In this document: in pieces, positions 1 to 19,734 of the stretch | Numbering within the stretch: the stretch's first letter is position 1 | How the letters are laid out: the number at the start of each line of letters is the position of its first letter | IMG/VR virus record: IMGVR_UViG_3300044842_000325 | Span: 1-64,000 of that record | Direction: 5' to 3' (one strand) | Length of the DNA stretch: 64,000 nucleotides | Source of the DNA: a virus | Taxonomy: Duplodnaviria > Caudoviricetes | The notes under the pieces: generated by a model | What the model was told of the DNA's origin: nothing | The model's input: only the letters and a program-made list of their open reading frames with translations | Databases searched by the model: none | Translations under genes and position numbers: made by a program

Positions 1-105
1 CTTTTTACGCAGTTTAAATAACCGGGTAAAATCACACGTGACGACCCATACCACAGCCCCAAAGATAATGGCCAGCGCAAGCCATTGATGGGGTTCTAAA
101 TTCAT
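1..105 (-). CDS. Small membrane protein, runs off the window start
   Basis: Manual translation from ATG at 105 gives MNLEPHQWLALAIIFGAVVWVVTCDFTRLFKLRKK: one hydrophobic helix followed by basic residues. It lies downstream of a terminator-like hairpin. Confidence 0.45.
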   Translation of the reverse strand, partial: MNLEPHQWLALAIIFGAVVWVVTCDFTRLFKLRKK

Positions 106-140
106 AAGAGTCCCAACAAAAAAAGAATAGAAAGTAAACC

Positions 141-161
141 CCTCCGCTCAATGAGCGGAGG
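141..161 (-). terminator. Intrinsic terminator hairpin
   Basis: CCTCCGCTCA-A-TGAGCGGAGG, followed on the minus strand by a T-rich tract, just after the stop at 171. Confidence 0.7.
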
Positions 162-170
162 AGGTTATGC

Positions 171-455
171 TCACAAGGGTTGATCCAACACCAAGTGAAA
201 CGTCGGGAGGTCGTAGACCAAGCGGCGATTGTGACCCACGATGTCGATTCGGGTTGGTGCGCAAATCGCTTCGCGTTTCGGCAGGCTTTGATCGATCAGC
301 ATGATTTGCCGAGCGATGATCGGAGCCAGTTTCTTCGGTTGCTTTTGCAACAGCTCCAAATCATCGACCAGAAAGTCACGCTTGAGTTCACCAAACCCAT
401 CGACTTGAAACCATACCGAACCATGTCGCTTGGACATAGGTAGGGATGGATTCAT
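171..455 (-). CDS. Hypothetical protein (start probably at 455 or 437, not 545)
   Basis: Same strand as neighbours; trimming the start removes the overlap with ORF 496..912; followed by a terminator. Confidence 0.5.
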   Translation of the reverse strand: MNPSLPMSKRHGSVWFQVDGFGELKRDFLVDDLELLQKQPKKLAPIIARQIMLIDQSLPKREAICAPTRIDIVGHNRRLVYDLPTFHLVLDQPL

Positions 456-495
456 GGCCACCCGGATCGCCGCTTTCAGCGAACGCTTGAGCGGA

Positions 496-912
496 TCACT
501 GCGCGGAAGGAGCCGCATGATTCTCGCTCGGGCGACGCAGGCCACGGGACACGGGGGTGCGATGTTGGGACTGGTCCCACGGGCGCGGCGTGACCACCGG
601 CTTCGGTTCTTCTTCCCGCGGGCGCAGCACGGGCGCCGGCGTCACGTTCATGACATCGGCGTAGCTACGCAGCTTGTACACCTTGTAGCCTTGACGTTCA
701 GCCTGATCCCAGATGTGGGCCAATACTTCCGGCGTCATCTGGGGCGGGGCGATGCCGACGAACGAGAAACGCACCGGCTCGTTCTTCAGGCGGTGTTGCA
801 CGTGGTCGACGTAGATCGAGCCGTGTTCCGGGAAGTCGTTGGATTCCTTGTGGAACAGGACCTTGGCGTCGATGGTGGTCTTGTTTTTCTTTTTGCTATT
901 GAACGGGAACAT
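496..912 (-). CDS. Hypothetical protein
   Basis: AAGGA RBS upstream of the ATG; part of a run of minus-strand genes. Confidence 0.65.
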   Translation of the reverse strand: MFPFNSKKKNKTTIDAKVLFHKESNDFPEHGSIYVDHVQHRLKNEPVRFSFVGIAPPQMTPEVLAHIWDQAERQGYKVYKLRSYADVMNVTPAPVLRPREEEPKPVVTPRPWDQSQHRTPVSRGLRRPSENHAAPSAQ

Positions 913-942
913 GATGGTTTTCCTTATAAGAAATGTTGTTGG

Positions 943-1332
943 TTATTCAGGTTGGGGCTCAAGAACTGCGCACTGCTTAACGATAATCGTCTCGGCTTCA
1001 GCTTTGGTGATGAAGCGTCGAACGACATGGGGTTGCTGGAGGCCATTGCGAATGGCCGTGTAATAATCGGGGGTGACAAAATCCGTAGCACCCAATGGGA
1101 GCAAATCGAAGATATCCTTCGTCACCACGTACGGACCACCTTTCGGATCATCTACCCAGTTCGGGAAAATAACGCGGCGATACGGTTGTCGAACGATCGC
1201 CAAACTCCCGCGATAGCAGGCGAGTTCAGCTTCGACGACTTCAACGATCGGAGGATGTTCACACGGCAACAACGTTGCACGAGTTCCATCGGTCCGATCA
1301 AAAACGATTGTGTCACGGGTTAAGTTCTTCAT
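943..1332 (-). CDS. Hypothetical protein
   Basis: 129-aa ORF in the minus-strand gene run. Confidence 0.6.
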   Translation of the reverse strand: MKNLTRDTIVFDRTDGTRATLLPCEHPPIVEVVEAELACYRGSLAIVRQPYRRVIFPNWVDDPKGGPYVVTKDIFDLLPLGATDFVTPDYYTAIRNGLQQPHVVRRFITKAEAETIIVKQCAVLEPQPE

Positions 1333-1405
1333 GATTGTTGTTGGTTATTGAAGTGCTACAGGGTCTATAAAGGATGCGTCTCTGGTAAATTTCTTACGGG
1401 TAAGA

Positions 1406-1600
1406 TCACTTACCCATGGATTGCACGACCATCTGCATGCCGACCAAACGGTTCAGGGTCTCTGCGGTTTGACTGGCCAGCTTGGCGGCGTTCTTGAGTT
1501 CTTGCAAGTCTGGCGCACAATCATTCGTGTCCGCCAAGATGTTACTGGCTTGACGCAGGTTATCTTTGGCCTGCAGCACATTACGACGCATGACGCTCAT
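1406..1600 (-). CDS. Small helical hypothetical protein
   Basis: Strong AAGGAG RBS upstream; amphipathic/coiled-coil composition. Confidence 0.6.
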   Translation of the reverse strand: MSVMRRNVLQAKDNLRQASNILADTNDCAPDLQELKNAAKLASQTAETLNRLVGMQMVVQSMGK

Positions 1601-1612
1601 TACTTTCTCCTT

Positions 1613-1972
1613 TTATCTTACACAGAAAATCTTATCCACCTTTTCATTGGGGTGATAACGCACCTGACAGCTCTTGACATCTGGGGGTAATGGATGGATA
1701 CGGATGACCGCGTTTAACTTACCATAACCGCACCATACTGACTTCGGATAGGTATTCGCTATTGCGTACGATTCGACCCATCCGCCACGGATACGTTTAC
1801 GGATGGGCTTTAGAATGCCATGTTCGTTAACCGGGCCTTCCATTACACCAGCGGCATGGAGTGGTACCCCCGCCACTACGAATGGTTCGCAACGCACCTC
1901 GAATTGCTGAGGCGCGGCGATAACCACCCAAGGCCACCACAATAGACCTACGAGTAGCCGCTGCATGGTCAC
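1613..1972 (-). CDS. tai2: Putative periplasmic amidase immunity protein (STY0301/Tai2-like)
   Basis: Sec-type signal peptide (MQRLLVGLLWWPWVVIAA); 4 Cys; pattern PL..AGVMEGP..E.G.L.P...W.C.YG......PLP..VKSC.V.Y; start overlaps the amidase stop (GTGA). Confidence 0.65.
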   Translation of the reverse strand: MTMQRLLVGLLWWPWVVIAAPQQFEVRCEPFVVAGVPLHAAGVMEGPVNEHGILKPIRKRIRGGWVESYAIANTYPKSVWCGYGKLNAVIRIHPLPPDVKSCQVRYHPNEKVDKIFCVR

Positions 1973-2448
1973 GGCCTCACGTGGTTCTTTTGAATCACGT
2001 AGAACGCTTCTAACGTATTCGAGGCATTAGTGTAACCACCGCTGCATGACATCGGGGCACTACCCTGACTACGGATCGGTCGCAGACTGATGACCGGCTT
2101 GGTCGGACCTTTCCACTGGTCGAGCACTTCGATCTCGGTCGGGATACGTTTGCCGTGTGCTGTCGTCCGGTATTTGGTGACGCGAACGAAAATAGCGAAA
2201 TGCTGACCGGTATCACTGTGTTGCGGATAGACACCACACAGGAACGTAGCGATCGCGGTGCCTGGCTTTAACTCGTCCGCCACATCCATCACCCGGTCAC
2301 CCGCCATCCACTTGTACGTGGGGCGATCCTTCAGTTCGGGGATGTGGGTACGGCCCAATGCCACACAGTCACCTGTCCCGGCCTTGGGTTGACCAATCAG
2401 AGATTTGTACTCTTTGTAAATGATGTCGTTACTCGTGTCGTGCGCCAT
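1969..2448 (-). CDS. tae2: T6SS-type peptidoglycan amidase effector (BPSL0067/Tae2 family, NlpC/P60-like Cys-His dyad)
   Basis: Motifs G.GDCVAL (catalytic Cys), W..G..V, PGTAIATF..G.YP, GQHFAIF (catalytic His), IEVLDQW, SN..EAFYVI; no signal peptide; GGAG RBS before ATG 2448. Confidence 0.8.
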   Translation of the reverse strand: MAHDTSNDIIYKEYKSLIGQPKAGTGDCVALGRTHIPELKDRPTYKWMAGDRVMDVADELKPGTAIATFLCGVYPQHSDTGQHFAIFVRVTKYRTTAHGKRIPTEIEVLDQWKGPTKPVISLRPIRSQGSAPMSCSGGYTNASNTLEAFYVIQKNHVRP

Positions 2449-2525
2449 GCTAAACTCCAATAGGTGGTTGAAAAGAAACCGACAACAACTGCTTGGAGAT
2501 AAGATGCTGACTTGTGGTAGGCTCC

Positions 2526-3020
2526 TTAGCGAATGTAGATCAAGATGTAGTCAAGAAAACGCTTCTTGTTGATTCGCTGAATGAGGTTCAACAAGAATTC
2601 TTTATGGGGTCGAACAGCGTGAACTCCGAATCTGTACATTCGACCATGCACGGGATCGATCCGATAAGGTTGGAATGACGCCTTCTCGTAGCATTTCTTT
2701 TGCAGCTCCCGATGGATGGCGTATTCAACCGGATGGTAAAGCTCAGGTACATGGATCGTCTTGACGCCATATTTCTCGGCAAGCTGTTTGACGGTCATGC
2801 CGTTCAGCATGTCTTTGAATGCTTCGATCGCTTGTTCAGCTTTATCGAGACGGTGATTCAGTTCGGTTATCGCTTGAATCGGTTTGGGGGTAGGGGCTTC
2901 CTGTTTAGGGATATACTCGATTTCCATCCGCCCCCCGAGGTAGTGGGCGGCTTCAAGAGCCAGATACATGCCGTCTTGCATTTGTTTCAAGTATTTCTTC
3001 TCGTCTTCTTTACTGAGCAT
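2526..3020 (-). CDS. Putative early DNA-binding protein (coiled coil plus HTH-like, antirepressor-like)
   Basis: AAGGA RBS before ATG 3020; coiled coil followed by MTVKQLAEKYGV; early-promoter-like motif upstream. Confidence 0.45.
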   Translation of the reverse strand: MLSKEDEKKYLKQMQDGMYLALEAAHYLGGRMEIEYIPKQEAPTPKPIQAITELNHRLDKAEQAIEAFKDMLNGMTVKQLAEKYGVKTIHVPELYHPVEYAIHRELQKKCYEKASFQPYRIDPVHGRMYRFGVHAVRPHKEFLLNLIQRINKKRFLDYILIYIR

Positions 3021-3079
3021 AGTGATTTCCTTTTGTTGTTGGTTATATGGCAAGTGCTTATATTCCCCAGCACATAGGT

Positions 3080-3087
3080 GTAATATG
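3080..3087 (-). promoter_or_regulatory. Putative early (virion RNAP) promoter CATATTAC
   Basis: One mismatch to the phiKZ early consensus TATATTAC; about 60 nt upstream of a start codon; AT-rich context. Confidence 0.5.
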
Positions 3088-3214
3088 TGTTTATTTTTAC
3101 GTAGCGCCATTACCTTTTGAGTGAAATGCTCCTGCTTGCCTAGCGGCAAGTAAACTTTCGCTTGCTACTCCATCCAACCACCCTTCCCAATACCCACCCC
3201 TTTGCTCTCTTAAT

Positions 3215-3237
3215 AGCTAGTAGCTTAGCTACTAGCT
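3215..3237. repeat. 23-bp palindrome AGCTAGTAGCT-T-AGCTACTAGCT
   Basis: Two 11-bp perfect inverted arms around a single T, in AT-rich non-coding DNA. Confidence 0.85.
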
Positions 3238-3341
3238 CACATCCTTCTTATTCCCTCTACTGTTAAGCTTCTCTAATCTCTCTGATGTTTATTCAAGAGA
3301 AGAAAGAAGAGAGCCCCTTAGGGCGATCGTTTTAATGACAT

Positions 3342-3381
3342 CATAAGCCCCCTAGGCCCTTGTGGGACCTAGGGAGTTATG
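3342..3381 (-). terminator. Hairpin closing the tail-appendage operon
   Basis: CATAA..CCCTAGG.CCC-TTGT-GGG.CCTAGGG..TTATG, just after the stop at 3397. Confidence 0.6.
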
Positions 3382-3396
3382 CAGCTAGATATTTAA

Positions 3397-6300
3397 TCAA
3401 TCTGGGACTGGCAAGACCAACCCACCTTGGATCTTGATGACCTTCAGGTTATTGCTGTTAATCTTGACAGTCGGTTTACTATTGGCAGTCGCTTCCAAAC
3501 GCACTTTGAAACCACCCGTGACATTCGACAGCTGAACCGCCCACTTCTTACCGAAGATGTTGGCTTTGACCGGCCCGACCGACGCACGGCCATCGGTGAA
3601 GTCGATGAACGCGTTGATGACAGCGTTAGCGTCACCTTGCGTATCTACGACACCATCCAAGCTGATCGTGTTCAGGTCGAACCCGGTTTTAGCGATCGCC
3701 AGTGTCGGCGCGTTGCCTACCGTACTTGCCGCTTCAGCCGCGATGATGCTGGCCGAAATCGGCAGGATGTTGATCGGTGCCCCGCCTGTTTGGGTGAGGT
3801 TTGTACCACCATCGTTGGTGATCCGGATGACCGGAGTTTGGTAGTTACCTGCCGGCACTTTATCCCACTTCACCGTCCAGGACGAACCATTGTTGGTGAG
3901 TGTGATCGGTGTCGGCCCCTGTTGCAGCGCCCCGTTGGGGTTGGTCGAATCCGGCAACAGCGTCGCCGCTCCTGAAATCGGCCCGTTGGTGCAGGTGCCG
4001 TTAACAGTGATGCTTTGCGCGTTGACGTCTTGGCTCGTGATGCTGACTTTCGACAACACCTTCACCACCGACCCTTGGATAGCGCCCGCGTCTGGCACAC
4101 CACCCCGCGACCCGTTGTACAGGTCCGTTGTATCGATCGCGCCCGAAGAAGCAGCACCGATCAATGGACCGTTATCGTCCGGGCGGAAGTCGTTCAACGC
4201 ATTACGCACCATGTTGCCGGTGGTAACGACAGTGATACCTGCTGCCGCTGTTGCCAAGGCTGCATCTGTGAAGTTGTTGAACAGGTTTGCCGCAGTCATC
4301 AGGTTGGTATTGACAACTGGGGTATCACCAAAGCCGAGGAACACGTTGTTACCCACCACCCCCTTCGAGGCCAAACTCAGGCCATTGCCAACGAAGACCG
4401 CGTGACCGGTTGCGCCGTTACGCCGCACGAAGGTATTGCGCAGGATGTTCAACGTACCGTTACCGGAGACAGCATCGCCCGTACCACCATCGAGGAAGAA
4501 CAGGTTGTCCGTCAACAGACACGGCGCGCCATATTCACCCGTCGCGATGCCCGGAATGTTGGTGCTCGGGTTGACCTTGATGCGGTTACGGGATACTTGA
4601 CCGGTCGGCCCATTACCCATCCCTGAAATCGCAAGAGAACCATTTCCGTTGATATTGACCCGGAAACCTTGCATCACTGCGCCGTAACTTAACCGCATAC
4701 CAGCGGAGATGACCAACTCAATACCTTCGGTACCGTAGTCGACTGCTTCACCTTTGTCCAGGTCATTGATGCTATTCCCGGGCACAGGCTGCACGATCAC
4801 CCTGTAGTCGGTCGTCGCGTTCGTGGCGTAAAGATCCGTGACACCACTGACAGCTTGGTTCTCGTACACTTCACCGAGGATCGAGGTCCGGTTGGCGGAC
4901 AGGTCGACACCACGAGCATAGGCTGCAAAGTCTTTCAACGTTGCATAGTCTTTACCCGTACCGATCGACTTCACAATCAGACCGTTCGTGCTCGGGGTAG
5001 GTGTCAACACAATCGGTGGCTTTTCCGTGATCTGCACCGACGTGTTTGCCAAACCGCCATCGTTACTCGTGGTGATGGTTTTCACACCCACCGATGCACC
5101 AACGTACGTGAAGGTGCCTTGCAGAGTGGTATTGTCGAGGGAAATGAATGGCGGATTGAACGAACCGCCAGCACCTCCATCACTCGGAATCACCTTCACA
5201 GGTGCCGTAACAATACCGTCCAGGCTCACCACAAAGTTACCACTCTGTTGACCAGCCCGCGCCGCGGTTGTGGGTGCCACCACATTTACCTTGGTGGCAG
5301 GTACTGCCGAACGATACACCAGCGATGCCGGTAATGTCAGCGCACCGTCGCTTGTCAGCGAAATCGTCACATCCCCAACGTTAGCTGGAGTGTACGTGAA
5401 AGTGGCATTGGGCACATCACCGACGATTTGCAGTGTCTGTGGCGTGAACGTACCACCGGCACCGTTATCGCTCGGCGTGACCGTGATCGCGTTGGCGACC
5501 GAGCCATTGGCACCCACTGTGAAGTTGGTAGAAGGTTGTTGATTACTACCCAATACCGGACCCGTGAGAGTCAACCCCGTAGCGGGAACAGGCAGTTCGT
5601 ATGCACCGATGTCCCACGCCGATTGACGCGGCAGACCGTAGATATCGCTGATCTGATACGTCGCCGACAGGTTGGTACCTTTATCCAGAAGATCACTCCC
5701 AGCCCTGAGACGGAAGTCGTTAACGGTGCTGATAAACTGGTTAGCATACGTCAGGTTCAGCTGGTTATGCGTGCCCGAAGAGCCGCCCGGTGCTTGATTC
5801 CAATCGGTCGCATTGTAGTCCGACGCCGAGAAGCTATTGGGTAGAATGTCACGACCAGTAAAGCCAAACATCGCGCAATTCTTCACTACATTGGTACCGT
5901 AGTTGAAAAGAATCGCACGAGCTGCGTCAGTACCATTGACAAACGTGGAAGGTTTAACAATGGTGCAGTTGATCAACGTGCCGTTGGTCATTTGCACCGC
6001 ATTGCCCACGCCTGCTGCGTTACTGACAATCAGGCTGTCCATGATGGTGCCATTCCCACCCATTGCCCCGGCCGAGCTATTGACGTTGTTGTCCGGTGTG
6101 CCGATCAGGATACAGTTCTTGATCACCGCACCAGTACCGCCGAACGAAAACGCCATCCCGCCCAAACCACTGGCCCAGATTTGGAGACCTTCAACCACGG
6201 TATAGTTGGCGTTAATATTCCACGTCGTGAGGTACGTACCGGCCGTTTTGATACCGACACCGTTGGCGCGGTTGTACCACAACGCGTTGCTAGAGCGGTT

Positions 6301-6543
6301 AGGGTTGGTGGCGAACGATTGACCAGCCGCCGCCCGCAGGGTGATGTTACAGGACGCACTGGTGGTCTTACCCGTAAGCGAGACCTTACCATTGGCGTCC
6401 GTGAACTCTGAGTCGTTGTACAACTCCCCCACGTAGGCGTTACCGGATGCAACCACGTCAGTCGGAATGGAATCGATGAACGCCTGCACAGTCGCATAAT
6501 CGCGCCCAGCAGCCGTACCAATACTCTTAACAATAGTTGCCAT
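3397..6543 (-). CDS. Module protein A1: two parallel beta-helix (pectin-lyase-like) domains plus Ig-like domains; putative receptor-binding/appendage protein
   Basis: Internal repeat of the KSIGT..DYAT cap; NxxI/NCTI beta-helix rungs; DFRL.AGS.L.D.G...DIGAYE closure; Thr/Val/Gly-rich Ig repeats (VTPSDNGAGGTFTP); paralog of 9351..12515. Confidence 0.7.
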   Translation of the reverse strand: MATIVKSIGTAAGRDYATVQAFIDSIPTDVVASGNAYVGELYNDSEFTDANGKVSLTGKTTSASCNITLRAAAGQSFATNPNRSSNALWYNRANGVGIKTAGTYLTTWNINANYTVVEGLQIWASGLGGMAFSFGGTGAVIKNCILIGTPDNNVNSSAGAMGGNGTIMDSLIVSNAAGVGNAVQMTNGTLINCTIVKPSTFVNGTDAARAILFNYGTNVVKNCAMFGFTGRDILPNSFSASDYNATDWNQAPGGSSGTHNQLNLTYANQFISTVNDFRLRAGSDLLDKGTNLSATYQISDIYGLPRQSAWDIGAYELPVPATGLTLTGPVLGSNQQPSTNFTVGANGSVANAITVTPSDNGAGGTFTPQTLQIVGDVPNATFTYTPANVGDVTISLTSDGALTLPASLVYRSAVPATKVNVVAPTTAARAGQQSGNFVVSLDGIVTAPVKVIPSDGGAGGSFNPPFISLDNTTLQGTFTYVGASVGVKTITTSNDGGLANTSVQITEKPPIVLTPTPSTNGLIVKSIGTGKDYATLKDFAAYARGVDLSANRTSILGEVYENQAVSGVTDLYATNATTDYRVIVQPVPGNSINDLDKGEAVDYGTEGIELVISAGMRLSYGAVMQGFRVNINGNGSLAISGMGNGPTGQVSRNRIKVNPSTNIPGIATGEYGAPCLLTDNLFFLDGGTGDAVSGNGTLNILRNTFVRRNGATGHAVFVGNGLSLASKGVVGNNVFLGFGDTPVVNTNLMTAANLFNNFTDAALATAAAGITVVTTGNMVRNALNDFRPDDNGPLIGAASSGAIDTTDLYNGSRGGVPDAGAIQGSVVKVLSKVSITSQDVNAQSITVNGTCTNGPISGAATLLPDSTNPNGALQQGPTPITLTNNGSSWTVKWDKVPAGNYQTPVIRITNDGGTNLTQTGGAPINILPISASIIAAEAASTVGNAPTLAIAKTGFDLNTISLDGVVDTQGDANAVINAFIDFTDGRASVGPVKANIFGKKWAVQLSNVTGGFKVRLEATANSKPTVKINSNNLKVIKIQGGLVLPVPD

Positions 6544-6555
6544 GTTGTATTACCT

Positions 6556-9267
6556 TTAGAGAGGACCCAGTGTAGCCGGCGCTTTGTAGATTGCCACCGG
6601 CGGCCACGCGTAGCCCATATCTGCCGACATGGCCGAGAACGGCGACGAGATGCCCTTGATCTTGGTATCGAGAGCATCCATCCAGCCCTGTACCATGTTG
6701 CATGTCGGCGTCACCATTTCATTGCCATTGTTGTCGACCGGGAACGGGATGTCCGGGAAGAAGTCGCGGCGAACAAACACCCACTGCATACGCATGGTCG
6801 TGCCAGCATCCAGCTTGGATGTGTTGAGCGTACCGTCCGTGTTGTGGATCATGGTTTCTTGACCCGTGGGCGGATTCTTCGCAACCCATTCCACCCAGTC
6901 TTGATACATCACCGGATCAGGGTTGCCGGCCGAGATATCAGCCGGTGCGGACCCTGCCGATGTGACGCGGTCCGAGTAAACGAAGTTCTTCTCGTAACGA
7001 CCCTTGGTGTAGTACAGCGACGCCAGCGAGTCTTTGTCCATCGAGTCAACGATGAAACGGAGCGCGGTTGCGCACTTGGCCGAACGCTGACGCATGGCAT
7101 TCCAGCAGCCCGTTTGACGCATCAGCGAAAGCACGCCGGCGAAGTAGCCAGCCTTATAGTCACTCACGCCACGCAGCCACTTCAGACCAGTGAAACCGTT
7201 TTGGCTGTTGCCGTATTCGACCAGACCAGGATTACCGAAACGACGAACTGCCACCAGATCCATGTCGGTCGAATTGTCGATGATCGCTGGTTTGTAGACT
7301 TGGTCATACACCGATTCCAATTCCACTTGCAGACGCTTTTCGATCGTTTCGCGATCGATACCCATCGGGTGGGCCGACGCGATCTTCCAGGCCACCACGA
7401 GCTGCAGCGTGCGCCATGCATGAACACGCGACAGGAAACCAACACGGATGTTGGTATTCGGCTTGGCATCACCCAGCTGACCGCACACGTGCGCGAACAG
7501 ACGTTGGTTGCCGCTGAGCGTGTGAGCCGGGCTGTTGCAGAAGATCGTAGCCAGACCAGGGGCCAAATAGGAGTGGTGTTGATCCACTTCCCAGCCGTTC
7601 CAGAAGCCTTTGTGACCATCCCGCACCGGCGCTGGCCAGTTACCACCATTGGCGATGGCGCGCAGGTCGACGTGTCGTGCCAGTCCACCCGGCACGTAAC
7701 CATAGTCGGAGTAGCCGTAGTAAGCGTGCGAATACGAGATCAAGCCATCGCGCATGTATTCCTTCGGCAACGTCGTGAGGGTCTTCACGTCAGCGATGAA
7801 GGTGTGATGTGCGTGGTGAAAGTAACCGTGGTTGTAACAATCGAGCAGCGTACGATGCGGGACGTTGCCCTTCAGACGGACGCCGTTCGGGCGGGTGAAG
7901 TAACGAATCAGCGGGGTATGCAGCGCACCGCGATCGTGACGCGGACCACCGGGTCCACAGTACCAGTCGTGCATGGAAATCGAACCCGGTTCGACGTTCC
8001 AGCCGCTGAGACGGCTCAAGTGACCTTCATCACCGTGATACGAGATGATGGGGTACAGATACGGATCATCGCCGTAGGTTTCACCCGGGACTTGGGTTGT
8101 TTCCTGACCCCATGGCAACGGCCATTCTGGCGCTGCGTACCAGTGCAGTGTCGAGTTCCATTGATCACGCGACACTTCCAGCGGTACCGAAGCGTTGGTC
8201 GACGCGCCGTTCTTGGCGACCGTGTCACGCATGAAGTGGTCGGTGATACCCGGAAAATATTTCAGGGCGTTCGAGCTATACTTCAGCTTGGCCGACTGCC
8301 AGAAATGCCACTGGCCACAGTTCATGTGGGGACGCAGCCCTTTGGTGTAACCAGGACCGAACAGCTGATCCAGCGACGGATCGTTCACCGGCAGACCATC
8401 ACGCATTTCGATCGTCTTGAGGACGGTCATATCCGAACGCATGATCTTGATCTTGTACGGCTTCGGGAACGTAGTGTCGCGGTCCGGACGGAACGTATCC
8501 GCGAATGGGTAGGTCGGCCATGTGCCGTAAGGCTTGTGGGCCACCACGATCTGATGCACGGGGGTACCGGGCGCATCCAGATTCAGAGCGCCGTTGATCG
8601 TCATCATGGTAGCGCCGAATTCGAATTGGCCGAAGATGACGGTCTTGGAACTTTGTGTCACACGTACATCGCCGATTTCAGCAGCCAGTTCCGCATCTTG
8701 ATAGACGAAGTCTTCGGCGCGCGTATCCAGCGGGATGATGCCGACAGATACCGGCGTTGCCGGATTCGACCAGTCCACCAGTTCGACGAACGCGGGTGCA
8801 TTGGCGTCCAGAGCCACAGCGACTGCGCCCGTACCGGACGGCAGGCTACGCGGACCCGAGATCGACAGCGTGGAGAAACCGAAGCCCGTTTTCGTCGTCG
8901 GATTACCCGACGCTTTGAAATCGCAGGCGCTGTTGGCCAAGCCCAGGGTGCCTTCGATCCAGTGGCCGTTGCCTTCGATACGCAGCACGCTGGCACCCGT
9001 GGTGAGATCGGCCGCCAGCTCAGTTGTTACGGCACCGATAGTGCCAAAACCGATGATGCTACCGCCACTACGCACCGGGCCACCCACCAGTTTGGCGTTG
9101 TAGAATTCGGTACCGGTGTCAAACACCGTGGTCGACGCGGGGTCGCTGGCACGCTTGCAACGCACGGTCAGATCAGTGCCGAGCATGTTCATCAGCGTAA
9201 TGCACCAATCCAGTTTGCTGGTTGCTGCCGCCAGCGAGGTTTGCAATGCCGAATCAAATTTAAGCAT
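6556..9267 (-). CDS. Module protein B1: N-terminal docking domain plus large His/Trp/Tyr-rich domain (putative polysaccharide-degrading enzyme)
   Basis: Paralog of 12530..15232; N-terminal ~145 aa resembles the C-terminus of the 15300..18626 fibre; HGYFHHAHH and GWEVDxxHSY conserved in both copies. Confidence 0.55.
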   Translation of the reverse strand: MLKFDSALQTSLAAATSKLDWCITLMNMLGTDLTVRCKRASDPASTTVFDTGTEFYNAKLVGGPVRSGGSIIGFGTIGAVTTELAADLTTGASVLRIEGNGHWIEGTLGLANSACDFKASGNPTTKTGFGFSTLSISGPRSLPSGTGAVAVALDANAPAFVELVDWSNPATPVSVGIIPLDTRAEDFVYQDAELAAEIGDVRVTQSSKTVIFGQFEFGATMMTINGALNLDAPGTPVHQIVVAHKPYGTWPTYPFADTFRPDRDTTFPKPYKIKIMRSDMTVLKTIEMRDGLPVNDPSLDQLFGPGYTKGLRPHMNCGQWHFWQSAKLKYSSNALKYFPGITDHFMRDTVAKNGASTNASVPLEVSRDQWNSTLHWYAAPEWPLPWGQETTQVPGETYGDDPYLYPIISYHGDEGHLSRLSGWNVEPGSISMHDWYCGPGGPRHDRGALHTPLIRYFTRPNGVRLKGNVPHRTLLDCYNHGYFHHAHHTFIADVKTLTTLPKEYMRDGLISYSHAYYGYSDYGYVPGGLARHVDLRAIANGGNWPAPVRDGHKGFWNGWEVDQHHSYLAPGLATIFCNSPAHTLSGNQRLFAHVCGQLGDAKPNTNIRVGFLSRVHAWRTLQLVVAWKIASAHPMGIDRETIEKRLQVELESVYDQVYKPAIIDNSTDMDLVAVRRFGNPGLVEYGNSQNGFTGLKWLRGVSDYKAGYFAGVLSLMRQTGCWNAMRQRSAKCATALRFIVDSMDKDSLASLYYTKGRYEKNFVYSDRVTSAGSAPADISAGNPDPVMYQDWVEWVAKNPPTGQETMIHNTDGTLNTSKLDAGTTMRMQWVFVRRDFFPDIPFPVDNNGNEMVTPTCNMVQGWMDALDTKIKGISSPFSAMSADMGYAWPPVAIYKAPATLGPL

Positions 9268-9300
9268 GTCTTTTTCCTAATGTCTTGTCAACATCTGAAA

Positions 9301-9339
9301 GTAATCTCCCGGGACGATAAGTCCCGGGAGAGGTATTAC
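9301..9339 (-). terminator. Hairpin between the two duplicated modules
   Basis: CTCCCGGGAC-GATAA-GTCCCGGGAG with GTAAT/ATTAC outer pairing. Confidence 0.65.
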
Positions 9340-9350
9340 TTCACACCGCC

Positions 9351-12300
9351 TTACTTCGGAATCGGCAGGGTGATAGCGCCCTTCAGTTTAAGAACTTTGA
9401 GGGTTGGTGTGGTGACGGTGGCCGGCGTTTGGCTATTCGCCGTGCCGACAACGCGCGCCTGGAAGTTGGTCGTGATGTTGGGTAACTGCACGCCCCACTT
9501 CTTACCGTTGATGGTTGCTCGGAACGGCCCCAACGTAGAACCACTCGGCTTCGGGTCAATGTAGACATCGATCGTAGCGTTCGGGTCACCTTGGTTGTCA
9601 ATCGAACCACTCAGGTTCACCGTCGTGTTGTCGAATGTCTTTTGTTCGACACTTATTACCGGCGCATTGCCGATAGAAGGCGAAGACTCATTCGCCACGA
9701 TGGCGCCCGTGATGGCGATGATGTTAACCGTGTCGGTTTTGCCAAGTTGCGAGCGATTGTAACCGGCCGTGTTTTGCATCACGATCAGCGGGATCTGATA
9801 GTTACCAGGCGGGATGTTCGTCAGTGTGAAGTCGAAATTCACCCGCGTTGCATCGTTCGGGTCAACCGTCAGTGGCAGATTCACGGGCCCTTGTTGCTGT
9901 GCGCCATTGGGGTTGGTGGTATCGGGCAGCAGTGTGATCGTAGCGGCGGTCGGCGTGTACTGAGCCGTCCCCGTCACGCGCACACTTTGACCGGTGGTGT
10001 CGATCAGGTTCAAAGTCACCCGCGGCAACATCTTCACCGGGCTACCTTGGACGCAACCCGGATCAGGCGAGCCGCCGCGAGTATAGCCATGGATGTCGAA
10101 CGAATCGATGGCCGACTCCGAAGCTTTACCCGCCATTGCCGAAGCTGGATCAGGCCGCAGGTCCGACGCCACGTTATTCACAAACGGAGCAGGCGAAGCC
10201 AGTACGGTGAAGCCGGATTTCGGCGTGGTCATCGCTACGTTCGTGTAGTTGTTGAATACGTTCGCATCCGGGATCTGGTCAAGGCCGATGACAGGAACCG
10301 GACCGCAATTGATGAACACGTTATCGAAGATGGTGTTCTTCGCTTGCACGCCCTGCGAATTGTTAGTCGTGATGGCGGCGCCGGTGGCGCTACCGCGGCG
10401 AATGAACGTATTGCAGTTGAGCGGCCCGAAGGACGACATACCGATAGCGTTGCCCGTGCTGGTGTCATCCAGGATAAACAAGCAATCACGAACCGTACCC
10501 GTACCGGTGTATTGACCGATCTGTACGCAGTTATTGGAACTGGTCGATTTGAATCGGCAGCTATTGATGATAGTGTCCGGACCCGCCCCGGACGAACCCA
10601 CCACCAGCATCGACGAACCCGCCAAACTGATACGGAAATCACTGATAATCACCCCTCTCGTGATTGCCCAGTTGTTCGACCCACTGAACTGCAGCTCGAT
10701 ACCTTCGGTGCCGTAGTCAAACGGATCACTTCCGTCTAGGTTGTTTACACTCGTGCCATATACCGGATTCAGATACAACCGGTATTTGTCAGTCGGGTTT
10801 TTGGCTGTCAGATTCGAGGCTGAGCTGACGGCTTGATTTTCATAAACTTCACCCACCAGAGAGATCTGGTTCGCCGTCAGGTCGAATGTAGCTGCGAAGT
10901 CCGTGAACGCTTTGAGGTTAGCGAAGTCTTTACCCGTACCGATCGATTTTATCAGGAAGTACGGACTGCTGGTGCCCGGCTGCGGCGTGATCGCTGCCTT
11001 GGCGGTGTAGGACACACTACCGTTAGTCAGGCCACCGTCGTTGGTCACCGCGATGGTTTTCACACCTCCCGATACCGCCACGTACGTAAACGTAGCCGAC
11101 GCGGTCGAGTTATCCAGCGTCACGAACGGTGGGTTGAACGAACCACCCCCGTTGTTGTCGTTCGGGATCACCTTCACCGGCGCAGACACGTAACCATCAA
11201 TTGCTACCGCGAAGTTACCGCTTTGCGTACCTGCACGTGCCGACGTTGTCGGTGCGGTCAGCGCCACCTGTGTGGCCGGAATCGTCGACTGGTAAACCAG
11301 CGCCGCCGAGTTAGCCAGACCGGCATTGTTGGTGATCGAGATGTTAATGTTGCCAGTATTGGCCGGTGTGTACGTAAACGTACCCGAGCTACTGCCCGAC
11401 AGTGTCAGGGAAGTCGGCGTGAACGTACCACCCGCGCCGCCGTCGCTGGGTGTAACTACGACGTTGTCGAGCGTGCCATCCGGCGTTACCGTGAAGTTGC
11501 TCGAAGCTTGACCGCTGCGGCCGAGCGAGGGACCAGTCAGCGTCAGTTTCGTGGCCGACTGCACCAGCTCATACGCACCGATGTCCCAGGTAATACGGCT
11601 GGTGCCGTAGATGTCCGTTGAACTGGCCGGATAGGTTGCCGACAAATTGATGCCTTTGTCGAACAGATCACTCCCCGCTTTCACGCGGAAGTCATTGGCA
11701 CTGCTGATAAACTGATTCGCGTACGTCAGACTCAGTTGGTTGTGGGTTGCCGCTGTACCACCCGGCGCTTGGTTCCAGTCCGTGGCGTTGTAATCCGATG
11801 CCGAGAAGCTGTTAGGTGCCAAGTCGCGGTTGGTGAAACCGAAGATTGCGCAATTCTTCACCACGCAGGTGCCGTAGTTGTACAGAATCGCGCGAGCTGC
11901 ATCAGTACCATTGACGAAATTCGACGGCCGTACCAGTGTACAGTTGATCAACGTGCCGTTGGTCATCTGTGCTGACGAAGCCACACCCGTGGTATTGTTG
12001 ACAATCAGGCAGTTGTTAAGCGTCGCACCGCCACCAACGTTAGCGGTATAGCTGTTGACGTTGCTATCTGGCGTACCGATGATGATGCAATTCTTGACCA
12101 CCACGCCTGTACCACCGGCACTAAAGTAAGAACCCGTGCCCGTCATCCAGATTTGCAGACCCTCCACCACCGTGTAAGGGCAACTGATCGCCCACATCGC
12201 GAGATACGAACCAGCACATTTGATGGCGACGCCGTTCGCCTTGTTATACCACAGCGGATTGTTGGCCCGATTGGGGTTATTGGCAAAGCCTTGTCCGGCG

Positions 12301-12515
12301 GCCGCACGAAGCGTGATGTTACATGTCGCGTTCGTGGTTTTACCGCTGATGCTTGCTTTACCGTTGGCATCGGTAAATTCGGAGTCGTTATACAACTCAC
12401 CGATATAAGCGTTACCAGACGCGACCACGTCGGTGGGGATCGAGTCGATGAACGCTTGAACGGTGGCGTAGTCTCGGCCCGCAGCTGTACCGATACTCTT
12501 GATGATAGTTGCCAT
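9351..12515 (-). CDS. Module protein A2 (paralog of A1): double beta-helix plus Ig domains
   Basis: Nearly identical N-terminus MATI.KSIGTAAGRDYATVQAFIDSIPTDVVASGNAY; same domain order as A1; start set at ATG 12515 by paralogy and AAGGA RBS. Confidence 0.7.
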   Translation of the reverse strand: MATIIKSIGTAAGRDYATVQAFIDSIPTDVVASGNAYIGELYNDSEFTDANGKASISGKTTNATCNITLRAAAGQGFANNPNRANNPLWYNKANGVAIKCAGSYLAMWAISCPYTVVEGLQIWMTGTGSYFSAGGTGVVVKNCIIIGTPDSNVNSYTANVGGGATLNNCLIVNNTTGVASSAQMTNGTLINCTLVRPSNFVNGTDAARAILYNYGTCVVKNCAIFGFTNRDLAPNSFSASDYNATDWNQAPGGTAATHNQLSLTYANQFISSANDFRVKAGSDLFDKGINLSATYPASSTDIYGTSRITWDIGAYELVQSATKLTLTGPSLGRSGQASSNFTVTPDGTLDNVVVTPSDGGAGGTFTPTSLTLSGSSSGTFTYTPANTGNINISITNNAGLANSAALVYQSTIPATQVALTAPTTSARAGTQSGNFAVAIDGYVSAPVKVIPNDNNGGGSFNPPFVTLDNSTASATFTYVAVSGGVKTIAVTNDGGLTNGSVSYTAKAAITPQPGTSSPYFLIKSIGTGKDFANLKAFTDFAATFDLTANQISLVGEVYENQAVSSASNLTAKNPTDKYRLYLNPVYGTSVNNLDGSDPFDYGTEGIELQFSGSNNWAITRGVIISDFRISLAGSSMLVVGSSGAGPDTIINSCRFKSTSSNNCVQIGQYTGTGTVRDCLFILDDTSTGNAIGMSSFGPLNCNTFIRRGSATGAAITTNNSQGVQAKNTIFDNVFINCGPVPVIGLDQIPDANVFNNYTNVAMTTPKSGFTVLASPAPFVNNVASDLRPDPASAMAGKASESAIDSFDIHGYTRGGSPDPGCVQGSPVKMLPRVTLNLIDTTGQSVRVTGTAQYTPTAATITLLPDTTNPNGAQQQGPVNLPLTVDPNDATRVNFDFTLTNIPPGNYQIPLIVMQNTAGYNRSQLGKTDTVNIIAITGAIVANESSPSIGNAPVISVEQKTFDNTTVNLSGSIDNQGDPNATIDVYIDPKPSGSTLGPFRATINGKKWGVQLPNITTNFQARVVGTANSQTPATVTTPTLKVLKLKGAITLPIPK

Positions 12516-12529
12516 CTTCAATTATCCTT

Positions 12530-15232
12530 TTAGAAAGGGCCTAATGTGGCCGGTGCTTTGTAGATACCGTGCGGTGGCCAGCAGAAGGTCATGTCGTTAC
12601 CCATCTTCGTGAAGTTACTGCTAATACCGTTGATCTTCACTTCCAAGGCATCCAACCAACCTTGGATCATGGTGCAGGTGGCGTTGACGATGTTGGTGTT
12701 GCCATCCATCGGGCTCGGAATCTCCGGGAAGAAATCACGACGCACGAAGGCCCATTGCAGGCGCAGTGCCGTGGTGGCCGCCATGTTAGCCGCGGTCGCA
12801 TTCCCGGCGCTATCGGTCATCAGTGTTTCCTGAGCGGTGGGCGGATGGTTTTGCACCCATTCGTTCCAGTCCTGATAAATCGGCGGATCGGGCATGTTCG
12901 AAGCGATATCGCGGTTCGGGTCGCCTGTCGTTTGGGCTTTGCCGGAATACTCGAAGAATCGCTCGTAACGGCCTTTGCTGTAATACAAGGACATCAACGT
13001 GTCTTTGTCCATGCATTCCACCAAGAACCGCAACGCTGTGTCGCACTTGGCCGAACGGCGACGCATGGCCGCCCAGCAACCCGTCTGGCGCATCAATGAC
13101 AACACCCCAGCGAAATAACCCGCTTTAGAGTCCGTCACTGCACGAATCCATTTGTAGCCAGCATAGCCATTACCCGAAGTACCATATTCGATACTGGAGA
13201 TTTGGCCAAAACGACGCACCGTCACCATGTCGAAATCATTCGACAGGTCGATCATGGCGGGCTTGTAGACGTAATCGTACAACGCTTCCAGTTCATCTTG
13301 GAATCGTGCTTCCACATTTTCGCGGTCCATCCCCATCGAGTGCGTGGTGGCAATCTTCCAGGCCACCGACAGCTGATGCCAGCGCCATGCTTGAACACGA
13401 GTCATGAACACGCTACGGGCACCAGAGCGCGGCGGCGCACTGGCCAACTGAGCGCACACGTGCGCGTACAGCCGCAACGTACCACTCACGGTGTGGGCGG
13501 GACTGTTGCAGAAAATGGTCGCTAATCCAGGCGCGATGTACGAGTGGTTATCGTCCACCTCCCAACCATTCCAGAAACCTTTATGACCATCGCGGACTGG
13601 CTTCGGCCAGTTACCTTGGTTGGGGATACCTTGCAGGTCGATGTGGCGGGTAAAACCGCCCGGCACATACGCGTTGTAGTTACCGTAGTACGCATTGGCC
13701 CACGCGATTTGACCATAACGCATGTACTCACGCGGCAGCATGGCAAACGTTTTCACGTCCGGCATGAGCATGTGGTGAGCGTGATGGAAGTAACCGTGAT
13801 TGTAGCAGTCCAGCAACTGGCGATGGGGAACGTTACCTTTCAGCCGCACGCCGTTCGGGTTGTTGAAGTAACGCACCAGCGGAGTACCCAGAGCCGACCG
13901 ATCGTGACGCGGTCCGCCGGGTCCGATGAACCAATCATGCATCGAAATCGAGCCAGGCTCGACATTCCAACCAGCCAGTAACGAAAGGTGACCTTCATCG
14001 CCATGATAGTCCGGCACGAACAGATAGGGATCGTCATCGTACGTGTAACCAGGTTGGCGAGCCTGCGAGGTGAAATACGCAATCGGCCATTCCGGCGCAG
14101 CATACCAGTGCAGTGTCGAGTTCCATTGATCGCTGTTAACTTCCAGCGGAATACGCGCATTCGACGAAATGCCGTTTTTGGCCATCGTTTCACGCTGCGA
14201 TTGCAACGTGGTGCCCGGGAAATACTTGAGGGCATTGGAATTGTACTTGAGGCGGTCGGATTGCCAGAAATGCCATTGACCGCAATTCATGTGCGGGCGC
14301 AGGCCCTTGGTGTAACCAGGACCGAACAGCTGATCCAACGACGGATCATTGACCGGCAAGCCGTCACGCATCTCGATGGTTTTCAAGATGGTGTTATCAG
14401 CTTTACGGATTTTGATTTTGTACGGTTTCGGGAAGGTTGTATCCCGATCACGTCGGAACGTATCCGCAAACGGATACGACGGCCAGGTGCCGTAGGGTTT
14501 ATGAGCGACAACAACTTGGTGCACGGGCGTACCCGGCTTATCCAGATTCAGTCCACCGTGAATGGTGAACATCGTCACACCGAATTCGAATTGACCATAC
14601 ACGATGGTTTTCGAGCTTTGGGTGATTCGCACGTCGCCGATTTCGGCGGCCAATTCGTCATCTTGGTAAACGAAGTCTTCAGCCCGAGTATCGAGCGGAA
14701 TCCGTCCAACCAGCACCACGTTGTTCGGATCGTTCCAATCTTCCAGCTCGATAAATGCCGGCGCATTGTCGTCCAGCGACGGTGCGACAGGGCCAGTACC
14801 CGAAGGCAAACTGCGCGGCGGCGAGATGGTAAGTGGTACGAATGCCATGCCGGTGCTGGCCGTCGGGTTTTGCGGTACCTTGAAGTCACAGGAACTGTTG
14901 GTCAGCCCCAATGTGCCTTCGATCCAGTGCCCGTTACCCTCGATACGCAGTACGCTGGCGCCGGTACTGAGATCCGCAGCCAAGTGGATGGTTGCGTTAA
15001 CAATCGTGCCAAACTTGACAATCGAGCTGCCCGAACGGGCCGGCGCTTCCGGCACCGAAGCCGAAAAGAATTCTGTACCCGTGTCGAACACGGTGGTGGA
15101 GGCGGAGTCAGCGCTACGTTTGCAGCGAATTTTCAGATCACTGCCCAGCGCGTTGACGAGCGTGATGCACCAGTCAAGCTTACTGATGGCCGACGCCAAC
15201 GAACTTTGTAATGCAGAATCAAATTTAAGCAT
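12530..15232 (-). CDS. Module protein B2 (paralog of B1)
   Basis: Colinear with B1 from MLKFDSALQ.SLA.A.SKLDWCITL to IYKAPATLGP. Confidence 0.55.
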   Translation of the reverse strand: MLKFDSALQSSLASAISKLDWCITLVNALGSDLKIRCKRSADSASTTVFDTGTEFFSASVPEAPARSGSSIVKFGTIVNATIHLAADLSTGASVLRIEGNGHWIEGTLGLTNSSCDFKVPQNPTASTGMAFVPLTISPPRSLPSGTGPVAPSLDDNAPAFIELEDWNDPNNVVLVGRIPLDTRAEDFVYQDDELAAEIGDVRITQSSKTIVYGQFEFGVTMFTIHGGLNLDKPGTPVHQVVVAHKPYGTWPSYPFADTFRRDRDTTFPKPYKIKIRKADNTILKTIEMRDGLPVNDPSLDQLFGPGYTKGLRPHMNCGQWHFWQSDRLKYNSNALKYFPGTTLQSQRETMAKNGISSNARIPLEVNSDQWNSTLHWYAAPEWPIAYFTSQARQPGYTYDDDPYLFVPDYHGDEGHLSLLAGWNVEPGSISMHDWFIGPGGPRHDRSALGTPLVRYFNNPNGVRLKGNVPHRQLLDCYNHGYFHHAHHMLMPDVKTFAMLPREYMRYGQIAWANAYYGNYNAYVPGGFTRHIDLQGIPNQGNWPKPVRDGHKGFWNGWEVDDNHSYIAPGLATIFCNSPAHTVSGTLRLYAHVCAQLASAPPRSGARSVFMTRVQAWRWHQLSVAWKIATTHSMGMDRENVEARFQDELEALYDYVYKPAMIDLSNDFDMVTVRRFGQISSIEYGTSGNGYAGYKWIRAVTDSKAGYFAGVLSLMRQTGCWAAMRRRSAKCDTALRFLVECMDKDTLMSLYYSKGRYERFFEYSGKAQTTGDPNRDIASNMPDPPIYQDWNEWVQNHPPTAQETLMTDSAGNATAANMAATTALRLQWAFVRRDFFPEIPSPMDGNTNIVNATCTMIQGWLDALEVKINGISSNFTKMGNDMTFCWPPHGIYKAPATLGPF

Positions 15233-15249
15233 TTTTTCGTCCGGTTAAA

Positions 15250-15278
15250 TGTCCCCGAGAAACCTTCTCCCGGGGACA
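15250..15278 (-). terminator. Hairpin after the tail fibre gene
   Basis: TGTCCCCG...CGGGGACA inverted repeat in the intergenic gap. Confidence 0.5.
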
Positions 15279-15299
15279 CGTCATTGGTTGATGATACGA

Positions 15300-19242: not shown

Positions 19243-19734
19243 TTAAATCGAAGCCCAATTTGTCGTGGGTAAGTTCATCATCTCTCGACGGTTGAACGAC
19301 TCGGCCAAGAACTTGATGACTTGATACAAACTGCCAGGATCGAAGCGCCACGAATTGGGAAGTCCAAGCGCCGCGCCAACTGCTTCCGAGCAGAACCAGT
19401 CGCCATTGCTGTCACCCACCACGCTGATCACGAAGTGCAGGTTGCCCAGCAAATCGTAGGGTTGCCCTTCATGAGCGTCGAACCACTGGCGCGCTTTCGC
19501 TTCGAACACTGCGGCGGGCAATTCAATGCAATCCCAGTGGTTGGGGTCGTAATCGATCTTCTTGTAGCGTACGCCACCATCGCTGTACGAAGACGACGCC
19601 GACCAACCGTCGCTAAATTGAATCTCGCAGTGCGAGTAAATCGATTTGGTGACGAGACGCACGCCACGGCTATAAATCCCCGCCAAACCCGGCCGGATGG
19701 ATTTATAGAAGTACACCTTGATGGTTTTCTCCAT
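19243..19734 (-). CDS. Permuted papain-like NlpC/P60 (YiiX/YaeF-type) amidase/acyl-hydrolase
   Basis: His before Cys: YSHCEI ... G.PYDLLG ... WFCSEAV. Confidence 0.7.
   Translation of the reverse strand: MEKTIKVYFYKSIRPGLAGIYSRGVRLVTKSIYSHCEIQFSDGWSASSSYSDGGVRYKKIDYDPNHWDCIELPAAVFEAKARQWFDAHEGQPYDLLGNLHFVISVVGDSNGDWFCSEAVGAALGLPNSWRFDPGSLYQVIKFLAESFNRREMMNLPTTNWASI

Follow-up and report, generated by a model that had tools for sequence, protein, structure and literature searches.

Tae2 is an amidase effector of a type VI secretion system (T6SS) encoded on Salmonella pathogenicity island 6 (SPI-6); it cleaves the D-alanine-meso-diaminopimelic acid (D-Ala-mDAP) cross-links of peptidoglycan, and Tai2 is its immunity protein (PMC10469887). 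A gene pair of this type is described here from viral DNA. It is found on the minus strand, at positions 1613 to 2448, of a stretch of 64,000 nucleotides, termed the window, which comprises bases 1-64000 of the 128,846-bp IMG/VR virus record IMGVR_UViG_3300044842_000325. The viral pair resembles the Tae2/Tai2 pairs of Salmonella Typhi SPI-6 and of Burkholderia in belonging to the same two families as defined by curated hidden Markov models (HMMs), in predicted fold and in its aligned catalytic Cys and His residues. The gene order and the tight coupling of the two genes are also shared, as are an effector without a signal sequence and a four-cysteine partner whose export is predicted, and modelling likewise places the partner over the active site. 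The locus differs from the bacterial pairs in its carrier, which is a phiKZ-like jumbo phage of lytic type and not a T6SS cluster or a chromosome.

Other phage systems bear comparison as well. Lytic phage T4 has a wall hydrolase, gp5, together with Spackle (gp61.3), a small, disulfide-containing periplasmic inhibitor that is exported by Sec (PMC7677548); a similar arrangement is predicted here from the genes. The two systems are not related in sequence or fold, however. In addition, the T4 gp5 lysozyme is a domain of the structural spike and Spackle is the product of an unlinked early gene, whereas the enzyme described here is free-standing and would be co-translated with its inhibitor. In Vibrio cholerae, the Aux3 T6SS effector-immunity cassette is found on a prophage-like element (bioRxiv 10.1101/868539). 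Cassettes of temperate phages or prophage-like elements, such as Aux3 and a second one discussed below (locus L032), are similar to the window locus in that a T6SS-type pair forms phage cargo next to tail-fibre genes. They differ in that they integrate and arm the living lysogen, and L032 brings its own Hcp gene. By contrast, hcp was not found in the record that contains the window, and this also sets the locus apart from the bacterial Tae2/Tai2 systems.

The effector, its partner and their predicted complex

The pair and the region immediately upstream comprise the following features:

1969 to 2448, minus strand: gene of a Tae2-like (BPSL0067-family) amidase/endopeptidase with a predicted papain fold
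1613 to 1966, minus strand: gene of a Tai2-like (STY0301-family) immunity protein, predicted to be exported
2449 to 2525, minus strand: short spacer that separates the effector gene from its upstream neighbour; a GGAG ribosome-binding site precedes the ATG by 8 nt

The effector, protein P0001 (read from 2448 to 1969), has 159 amino acids (aa), a mass of 17.6 kDa and an isoelectric point of 9.2. It displays the motifs GDCVALG, which includes C28, GTAIATF (residues 63-69), GQHFAIF, which includes H83, and DQW (residues 110-112). The N-terminus is not hydrophobic, the best 15-residue Kyte-Doolittle window being 1.08. A preliminary description of this DNA, made from the sequence, had proposed a signal-less protein with a Cys-His dyad, and all of the motifs that it quoted are present. 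Its assignment of the protein to the Tae2/BPSL0067 family is borne out by the curated HMM and by a solved structure that matches both in sequence and in predicted fold. P0001 scores 80.1 bits against the NCBIfam model NF033857 (BPSL0067_fam), which has a cut-off of 27 (E 1.4e-22), and the match covers profile positions 2-115 of 115. By phmmer, 6WIN is the sole solved structure that matches in sequence (E 7e-10), with ~29% identity. 6WIN is the 'Type 6 secretion amidase effector 2' of S. Typhi, whose catalytic residues, Cys23 and His73, were named by the depositors (bioRxiv 10.1101/2020.04.10.036376). C28 and H83 of P0001 align with these two residues.

An AlphaFold2 model of P0001, built with 29 homologues, has a predicted local distance difference test score (pLDDT) of 90.8. 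When this model was compared with Foldseek, 6WIN was the only match at E<=0.001 (E 2.4e-10, template modelling score 0.76/0.85, root-mean-square deviation 2.3 A); lysins of the CHAP/NlpC type are the next-best matches, weak and far behind. Residues C28, H83 and Q111 are invariant among 29 aligned family members, the D110-Q111-W112 sequence is conserved, and the catalytic residues are intact in every phage-borne Tae2 copy. Pfam gave no match, and PHROGs no significant match, for either the effector or its partner. A terminator scan of the spacer at 2449 to 2525 revealed no terminator-like hairpin.

P0001 also has two non-catalytic cysteines, C71 (in FLCG) and C135 (in SCSGG), encoded at window positions ~2236-2238 and ~2044-2046, respectively. 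The two are found in all six members of a phage-type subclade (the window, L026, L002, L004, G001 and P0006, which are described below) and in 0 of the 24 other aligned members, and they distinguish the subclade from the Tae2 of S. Typhi. This distribution suggests a disulfide that is specific to the phage-type subclade.

The partner, P0112, has 117 aa when read from the ATG at 1966, and there is an alternative GTG at 1972. The ATG (1966-1964) is two bases past the effector stop codon and 8 nt downstream of a GAGG sequence; for the alternative GTG the spacing from GAGG is only 2 nt. The public gene call for P0112 uses the ATG, and the same layout, with an ATG two bases past the stop, is found in L026. 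Because of the proper spacing, the public call and the shared layout, the ATG and not the GTG is probably the start of the partner. The preliminary description had reported a GTGA overlap of the effector stop with the partner start. This sequence does exist, but translation of the partner probably does not begin there; the tight coupling of the two genes stands.

The N-terminus of P0112 has a charged residue (R3), followed by hydrophobic residues 4-18 (Kyte-Doolittle 2.08) that end with V-I-A-A-P. By its hydrophobicity this segment is a putative Sec-type signal peptide of ~18 residues, which would leave a mature part of ~99 aa. The mature part has exactly four Cys residues (26, 79, 100 and 115), and these properties agree with the signal-peptide, four-cysteine protein initially described. 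P0112 is without a lipobox, whereas the L002 copy has L-L-A-C. The match of P0112 to the NCBIfam model NF042415 (STY0301_fam) has a score of 40.6 bits, above the curated cut-off of 22 (E 2.1e-10), and extends over profile positions 46-135 of 137, so that the proposed Tai2/STY0301 assignment of the partner holds. Partners in nine other tested loci (9/9) also match STY0301_fam. Unlike bacterial Tai2, the Tai2 proteins of the lineage formed by the window, L026 and L002 are short of about the first 45 profile positions. We take the STY0301 family to be the Tai2 immunity proteins; this identity is based on the place of the genes after Tae2 genes in every examined locus, on the binding model and on background knowledge. 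A sequence search of solved structures gave no match for P0112, and the AlphaFold2 model of Tai2 alone, from a six-row alignment, is poor, with a pLDDT of 50.9.

The complex was predicted with alignments for both chains and with the mature part of the partner, in three runs and with three controls. The model of the Tae2-Tai2 complex has an ipSAE score of 0.86 (runs 0.86-0.87), and the best of the three controls has 0.04. In calibration, 58 of 80 solved complexes came up to this mark, compared with 2 of 110 mismatched pairs. At least 94% of contacts are common to the runs, and the pLDDT of the partner is at least 89. The predicted interface takes in enzyme residues 28, 83, 110 and 112. A Tai2 loop at residues 48-57 (G50-I-L-K53-P) contacts C28, H83, D110 and W112, and the contacts of lowest error are centred on partner residues 50-54. 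Within the loop, G50, L52 and P54 are present in most aligned Tai2-like proteins, K53 is found in four of six and I51 is variable. Modelling of the pair had been suggested in the preliminary description, and the position of the loop over the active site, with a score far from that of the controls, fits the pairing proposed there. The model supports binding of Tai2 to Tae2 by active-site occlusion. Recall of a solved Tae2-Tai2 complex by the predictor is unlikely, because no solved structure matches the partner in sequence. The model offers a first structural hypothesis for the block of Tae2 by Tai2; no solved Tai2-family structure was found in the sequence search.

Carrier phages and history of the module

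The window's record is linear and incomplete, with a CheckV completeness of ~48%. Two phiKZ-type split RNA-polymerase beta subunits are encoded in the window (phrog_3015 and phrog_3295; E 1e-161 and below), and the window also codes for internal head proteins, virion proteins and several phiKZ-group PHROG families. The jumbo-phage context noted at the outset is borne out by these genes. Judged by the RNA-polymerase subunit, the nearest cultured phages are Burkholderia phage FLC9 (42%) and Ralstonia phages RP12 and RP31 (33%). T6SSs are common among Burkholderia and Ralstonia hosts, and we know of no lysogeny in this phage group. The carrier is a phiKZ-like jumbo phage, known from metagenomes only.

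The pair is 1.6 kb from the contig start. A position so close to the start of a linear, incomplete record could point to an artefact in which host DNA was joined to the phage contig by mis-assembly, as the preliminary description had considered. However, phage genes are found on both sides of the pair. On the outer flank these are members of phrog_37514 (E 2e-7) and phrog_19581 (E 3e-15), and on the inner flank there is an array of very large open reading frames (ORFs), one of which matches tail-fibre PHROGs. At 0.51-0.53, the GC content of positions 1-4000 differs little from that of the remaining sequence of the window. Moreover, the same five-gene block, beside tail-fibre-like genes, was assembled independently from another sequencing run (L026), and in G001, a jumbo-phage contig collinear with this one, the pair is 71 kb away from the nearest end. 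Mis-assembled host DNA is ruled out by the flanking phage genes, the independent assembly and the internal copy, and the probability that we leave to such an artefact is negligible.

When 1.84 billion representatives were searched exhaustively with HMMER, no more than 100 members of the family came up at E<=1e-3. The survey of related phages, also suggested initially, located the pair in three further phage contigs. The first, L026 (Logan run SRR31761968, 4.8 kb), has DNA that is 75% identical to the window over 2.4 kb. In this block the amino acid identity to the window is 52% for the upstream gene, 93% for Tae2, 69% for Tai2, 80% for a 62-aa gene and 84% for a 128-aa gene, and the block is preceded by collagen-like tail-fibre genes that are different from the fibre genes of the window. 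A second contig, L002 (SRR32256216, 2.8 kb, GC 0.44), encodes Tae2 and Tai2 proteins that are 78% and 47% identical to those of the window. The L002 pair is followed by a helicase gene whose product is 37% identical to the window helicase, which is encoded 50 kb from the window pair. The third, G001 (IMGVR_UViG_3300046507_000773), is 226,810 bp in length and 86% complete; its Tae2 is ~46% identical and is followed by an STY0301-family gene. G001 and the window phage have 33 proteins in common, which are collinear and display 25-55% identity with a median near 40%. The G001 pair is at 71 kb, outside the collinear region and in a different place from that of the window, with an Rz-like spanin gene on one side and an SLT-type endolysin-like gene on the other.

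Orphan pairs are also found in ordinary bacterial chromosomal contexts (P0006, P0010 and P0013, as well as Duganella and Undibacterium copies). All tested effectors and partners, including all four phage-borne pairs, pass both family cut-offs. In a quick maximum-likelihood tree the phage copies fall within one 10-row clade (SH-aLRT 92) that also contains bacterial copies; in this clade the G001 copy has bacterial P0006 as its sister (83), and the deep forks of the tree are uncertain. Because the clade of the phage copies holds bacterial copies, and P0006 is sister to the G001 copy, the history of the module appears to include more than one transfer between phage and bacterium. The module has most likely also moved between jumbo-phage lineages. 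By helicase, L002 is as distant from the window (37% identity) as is G001 (40%), yet its Tae2 is far closer (78% versus ~45%) and its Tai2 is shortened in the same way as in the window lineage. A further contig, L004 (3.3 kb, 60% GC; positions 290-3166), has a Tae2 that is 56% identical, and its pair directly follows a gene for a 529-aa patatin-like phospholipase. L004 may represent a two-effector island.

The module is rare. Searches by tblastn with Tae2 and Tai2 of the phage and with a Tae2 of bacterial type gave 0 matches in 50,697 GenBank phage records, and there was no match in plasmids. Nor did IMG/VR give a match when it was scanned with P0001 by itself or with g129, a flanking gene. 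IMG/VR pattern scans, for which the wide alignment A1 was too diverse, found G001 only for the phage-type clade and, for the bacterial type, three contigs of temperate or island-like character. A metagenome scan provided 32 further loci, at <=42% identity; none of the 32 has any other protein in common with the two jumbo phages, and no phage carriers were added. Among 401 sampled Burkholderiales genomes, three match at E<=1e-5. The literature search yielded no account of a jumbo phage with a T6SS effector pair.

With respect to the T6SS itself, profiles of Hcp (PF05638) and TssC/VipB (PF05943) found no match in the 128.8-kb record, which is ~48% complete, or in G001. The earlier statement that no T6SS machinery is present in the window is thus extended to the whole of the record, within its degree of completeness. 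Because neither jumbo-phage record has Hcp or TssC, a T6SS route would need the host's own system. Elsewhere the gene for Hcp does accompany the effector. L032 (IMGVR_UViG_3300046506_000180) is a temperate-phage contig end that carries an Hcp-effector-immunity cassette; positions 542-2330 display tRNA-Phe, hcp, tae2 and tai2, and these are followed by tail-fibre genes on the opposite strand. In an Undibacterium sp. genome (G003, contig C8, 134879-135736; loci L036 and L043), a Tae2-like ORF is directly downstream of hcp. It matches query residues 9-89 only, and may be a truncated or divergent effector. Both sampled bacteria with orphan pairs encode Hcp.

A comparison of the window with L026 gives ratios of nonsynonymous to synonymous substitution (dN/dS) of 0.027 for Tae2 and 0.148 for Tai2, and of 0.154 and 0.065 for the two downstream genes; these values are approximate, as dS is 0.7-1.7 and near saturation. 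The direction is clear at the level of sequence comparison: both genes appear to be under purifying selection, with the enzyme the most constrained of the block and the antidote constrained too. Selection on both genes would therefore mean that the enzyme is used, and that infected cells meet it from the periplasmic side.

Neighbouring genes and a conserved leader

The small-gene block that includes the pair is completed by genes on both sides and by a non-coding region upstream:

2526 to 3020, minus strand: co-oriented upstream gene, 164 aa from the ATG at 3020, with 52% identity to a 168-aa gene at the same position of L026
1406 to 1600, minus strand: co-oriented downstream gene, 64 aa, a phrog_37514 member (E 2.3e-7) with 80% identity to its L026 counterpart
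943 to 1332, minus strand: co-oriented downstream gene, 129 aa, with 84% identity to L026 4402-4788
3025 to 3290, minus strand: non-coding leader/promoter region of the small-gene block, delimited by alignment with L026 2425-2695

The upstream gene at 2526 to 3020 has no Pfam or PHROG match. A longer frame of 207 aa is not conserved, and the in-frame extension is stopped in L026. The gene at 1406 to 1600 has a strong ribosome-binding site, and its start is 13 nt past the Tai2 stop codon. The gene at 943 to 1332, likewise without a match in Pfam or PHROGs, closes the block that L026 and the window have in common.

The non-coding region at 3025-3290, which separates the last large tail-fibre-like gene from the small-gene block, is ~95% identical to L026 2425-2695, whereas DNA identity in the flanking genes is no higher than 59-82%. 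The region contains two hairpins, the sequence ATATTAC at 3086 and a leader sequence, ATAACCAACAACA, before a ribosome-binding site. One hairpin is perfect (GAGCTAGTAGCT..AGCTACTAGCTC) and the other is CTTGCC-N4-GGCAAG, which is found again near 88.7 kb of the record. The region has no Rfam match, no significant fold (z-score -1.4) and no conserved small ORF, and a scan with a 23-mer from the conserved intergenic region gave no match. The ATAACCAACAACA leader precedes the ribosome-binding site in at least four minus-strand genes, with sites at 3033-3046 and 1336-1349 in the window and at ~87,760 and ~93,850 in G000, all on the minus strand. At two of these sites (T)ATATTAC is found 31-38 nt upstream. 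ATATTAC, which resembles the phiKZ early-promoter core, has two or three similar sites across 129 kb and is a weak, phiKZ-early-like signal. Together, ATAACCAACAACA and ATATTAC may form a promoter-leader module of the window's phage. De novo k-mer enrichment returned T-runs and the CCAACAAC leader only, and scans for sigma-70 promoters and for terminators were uninformative.

Upstream of the block, at 3397-18626 on the minus strand, are five consecutive ORFs of 900-1108 aa. Only the innermost (15300-18626) has a tail-fibre PHROG match, and the other four match no PHROG family; the array may be a multi-fibre or depolymerase array. At the same position, L026 has unrelated collagen-like fibre genes, and the large-ORF region therefore appears to have been swapped between relatives. 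Further along, at 19243-19734 on the minus strand and amid tail genes, is a gene for a 163-aa protein that matches phrog_1128 ('enoyl-CoA hydratase/carnithine racemase-like'; E 1.9e-38), a family classed by PHROGs under morons and auxiliary genes.

Possible roles of the pair in infection

The explanation that we put forward, tentatively and with somewhat less than even confidence, is that a phiKZ-like jumbo phage carries the pair as accessory cargo, that the two genes form a functional effector-immunity module of the Tae2/Tai2 kind, and that the infected cell exports the enzyme through the T6SS of its host. The enzyme, a predicted papain-fold Cys-His hydrolase (C28/H83), would be made in the cytoplasm without a signal peptide and sent through the host's T6SS at neighbours that have no antidote. 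Once in a periplasm it would, by analogy with Tae2, cut D-Ala-mDAP cross-links of peptidoglycan. The partner would be exported by Sec and oxidised at its four Cys residues, and is predicted by the model to block the enzyme with the G-I-L-K53-P loop laid over the catalytic cleft. Tai2 would also protect cells infected by the same phage from one another. Perhaps the phage even 're-arms' its host, in that its own Tae2, loaded into the host T6SS, and its Tai2 make the infected cells into a compatibility group of their own, one that kills neighbours which are uninfected or infected differently; this more specific proposal is possible but doubtful. If true, it would represent phage kin recognition by means of a borrowed bacterial weapon, with cells infected by the same phage spared.

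Export by the host T6SS is favoured because the whole bacterial layout has been kept, with a free-standing, signal-less, Hcp-sized enzyme and a co-translated antidote, because there is no adaptation to a structural role and no fusion to a virion protein, and because the genomic places, one of them beside a helicase gene, resemble cargo sites. Several points weigh against it. With Hcp and TssC found in neither phage record, export would rely on a T6SS supplied by the host. Both of the Hcp-linked loci that were found bring the effector together with its own Hcp. In addition, the killing of uninfected neighbours removes potential hosts, and the gain for a lytic phage is not obvious. The dN/dS values, being approximate, also count on this side.

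A phage precedent exists for a different use, as the tail lysozyme of T4 is inhibited by an early protein that is periplasmic and disulfide-bonded (PMC7677548). Tae2 would then be a virion enzyme that opens the wall at infection, and Tai2 would neutralise the enzyme of later virions; infected cells would thereby exclude superinfection and resist lysis from without, in the way that Spackle acts against gp5. Selection on both partners fits a cell that is exposed externally to the phage's own enzyme, and the pair adjoins tail-fibre or virion genes in three of the four contigs (the window, L026 and G001), although tail-fibre neighbourhoods, such as that of L032, are also usual sites of accessory cargo, and the L002 pair adjoins a replication helicase. 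The phiKZ-early-like ATATTAC upstream of the block is a weak hint in the same direction, and the C71/C135 pair of the subclade suggests a disulfide for life outside the cytoplasm. However, the enzyme is free-standing and has no carrier, spike, hub or tape-measure domain, whereas the wall hydrolases known from virions almost always occur as domains of structural proteins. In the family representatives that were scanned (the 10 longest of the top 100), the fused forms are linked to WXG100, Rhs or PG_binding_1 and 0 to a tail protein. Tight co-translation is also ill-suited to the joint production of a late structural protein and an early exclusion factor. We consider an entry enzyme with a Spackle-like inhibitor, the main rival reading, unlikely, while allowing it an appreciable chance. 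Improbable, in our estimate, is that the immunity gene is what the phage needs, with Tai2 shielding the infected cell from the Tae2-type attack that neighbours make with their T6SS during a long jumbo-phage cycle with host shut-off, and with the effector riding along or the pair persisting as a selfish mobile toxin-antidote cassette. The module does appear autonomous, as it occupies three genomic places in four phage contigs without common neighbours, and its history is a mixed phage-bacterial one, with bacterial P0006 sister to the G001 copy in the quick tree. Orphan immunity genes are, moreover, common in bacteria. Yet it is the effector that is most conserved in the block, at 93% identity to L026 compared with 69% for Tai2 and with the lower dN/dS of the two, and the catalytic residues have remained intact in all phage copies. 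In the probable host order the family is rare (3/401 Burkholderiales), so such attack should be uncommon, and a cytoplasmic, signal-less enzyme is harmless to its producer and cannot enforce addiction.

The layout of a small, signal-less, free-standing enzyme is also that of a canonical endolysin. Tae2 might be a second endolysin, released by a holin, that severs peptide cross-links beside a glycan-cutting enzyme of the phage, and Tai2 might buffer premature or leaked activity. The weak, next-best fold matches to CHAP/NlpC-type lysins are consistent with such an accessory role in lysis, as is the position of the G001 pair between spanin-like and endolysin-like genes. G001 thereby already has an endolysin-like gene, however, and no lysis genes are near the pair in the window, L026 or L002, where the neighbouring products are not membrane-spanning as judged by eye. 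A periplasmic inhibitor made together with the enzyme would, in addition, oppose lysis. We regard this role as very improbable.

The molecules of the module are familiar; the novelty lies in the carrier and in the use that it implies. T6SS pairs have so far been seen as weapons of living bacteria, or as cargo of temperate elements that arms the lysogen. Here, a complete pair that appears to be under strong purifying selection is found in at least four contigs of large phages of lytic type, and it has most likely moved between distant lineages. A complete pair that is selected and mobile argues, therefore, that the phage gains from both the enzyme and the antidote during infection. Any of the live readings would be new for this phage group, whether hijacking of the host T6SS, a convergent, Spackle-like exclusion or shielding from neighbours. 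If the Spackle-like reading were true, an exclusion system would have been built convergently from a bacterial toxin-antidote pair.

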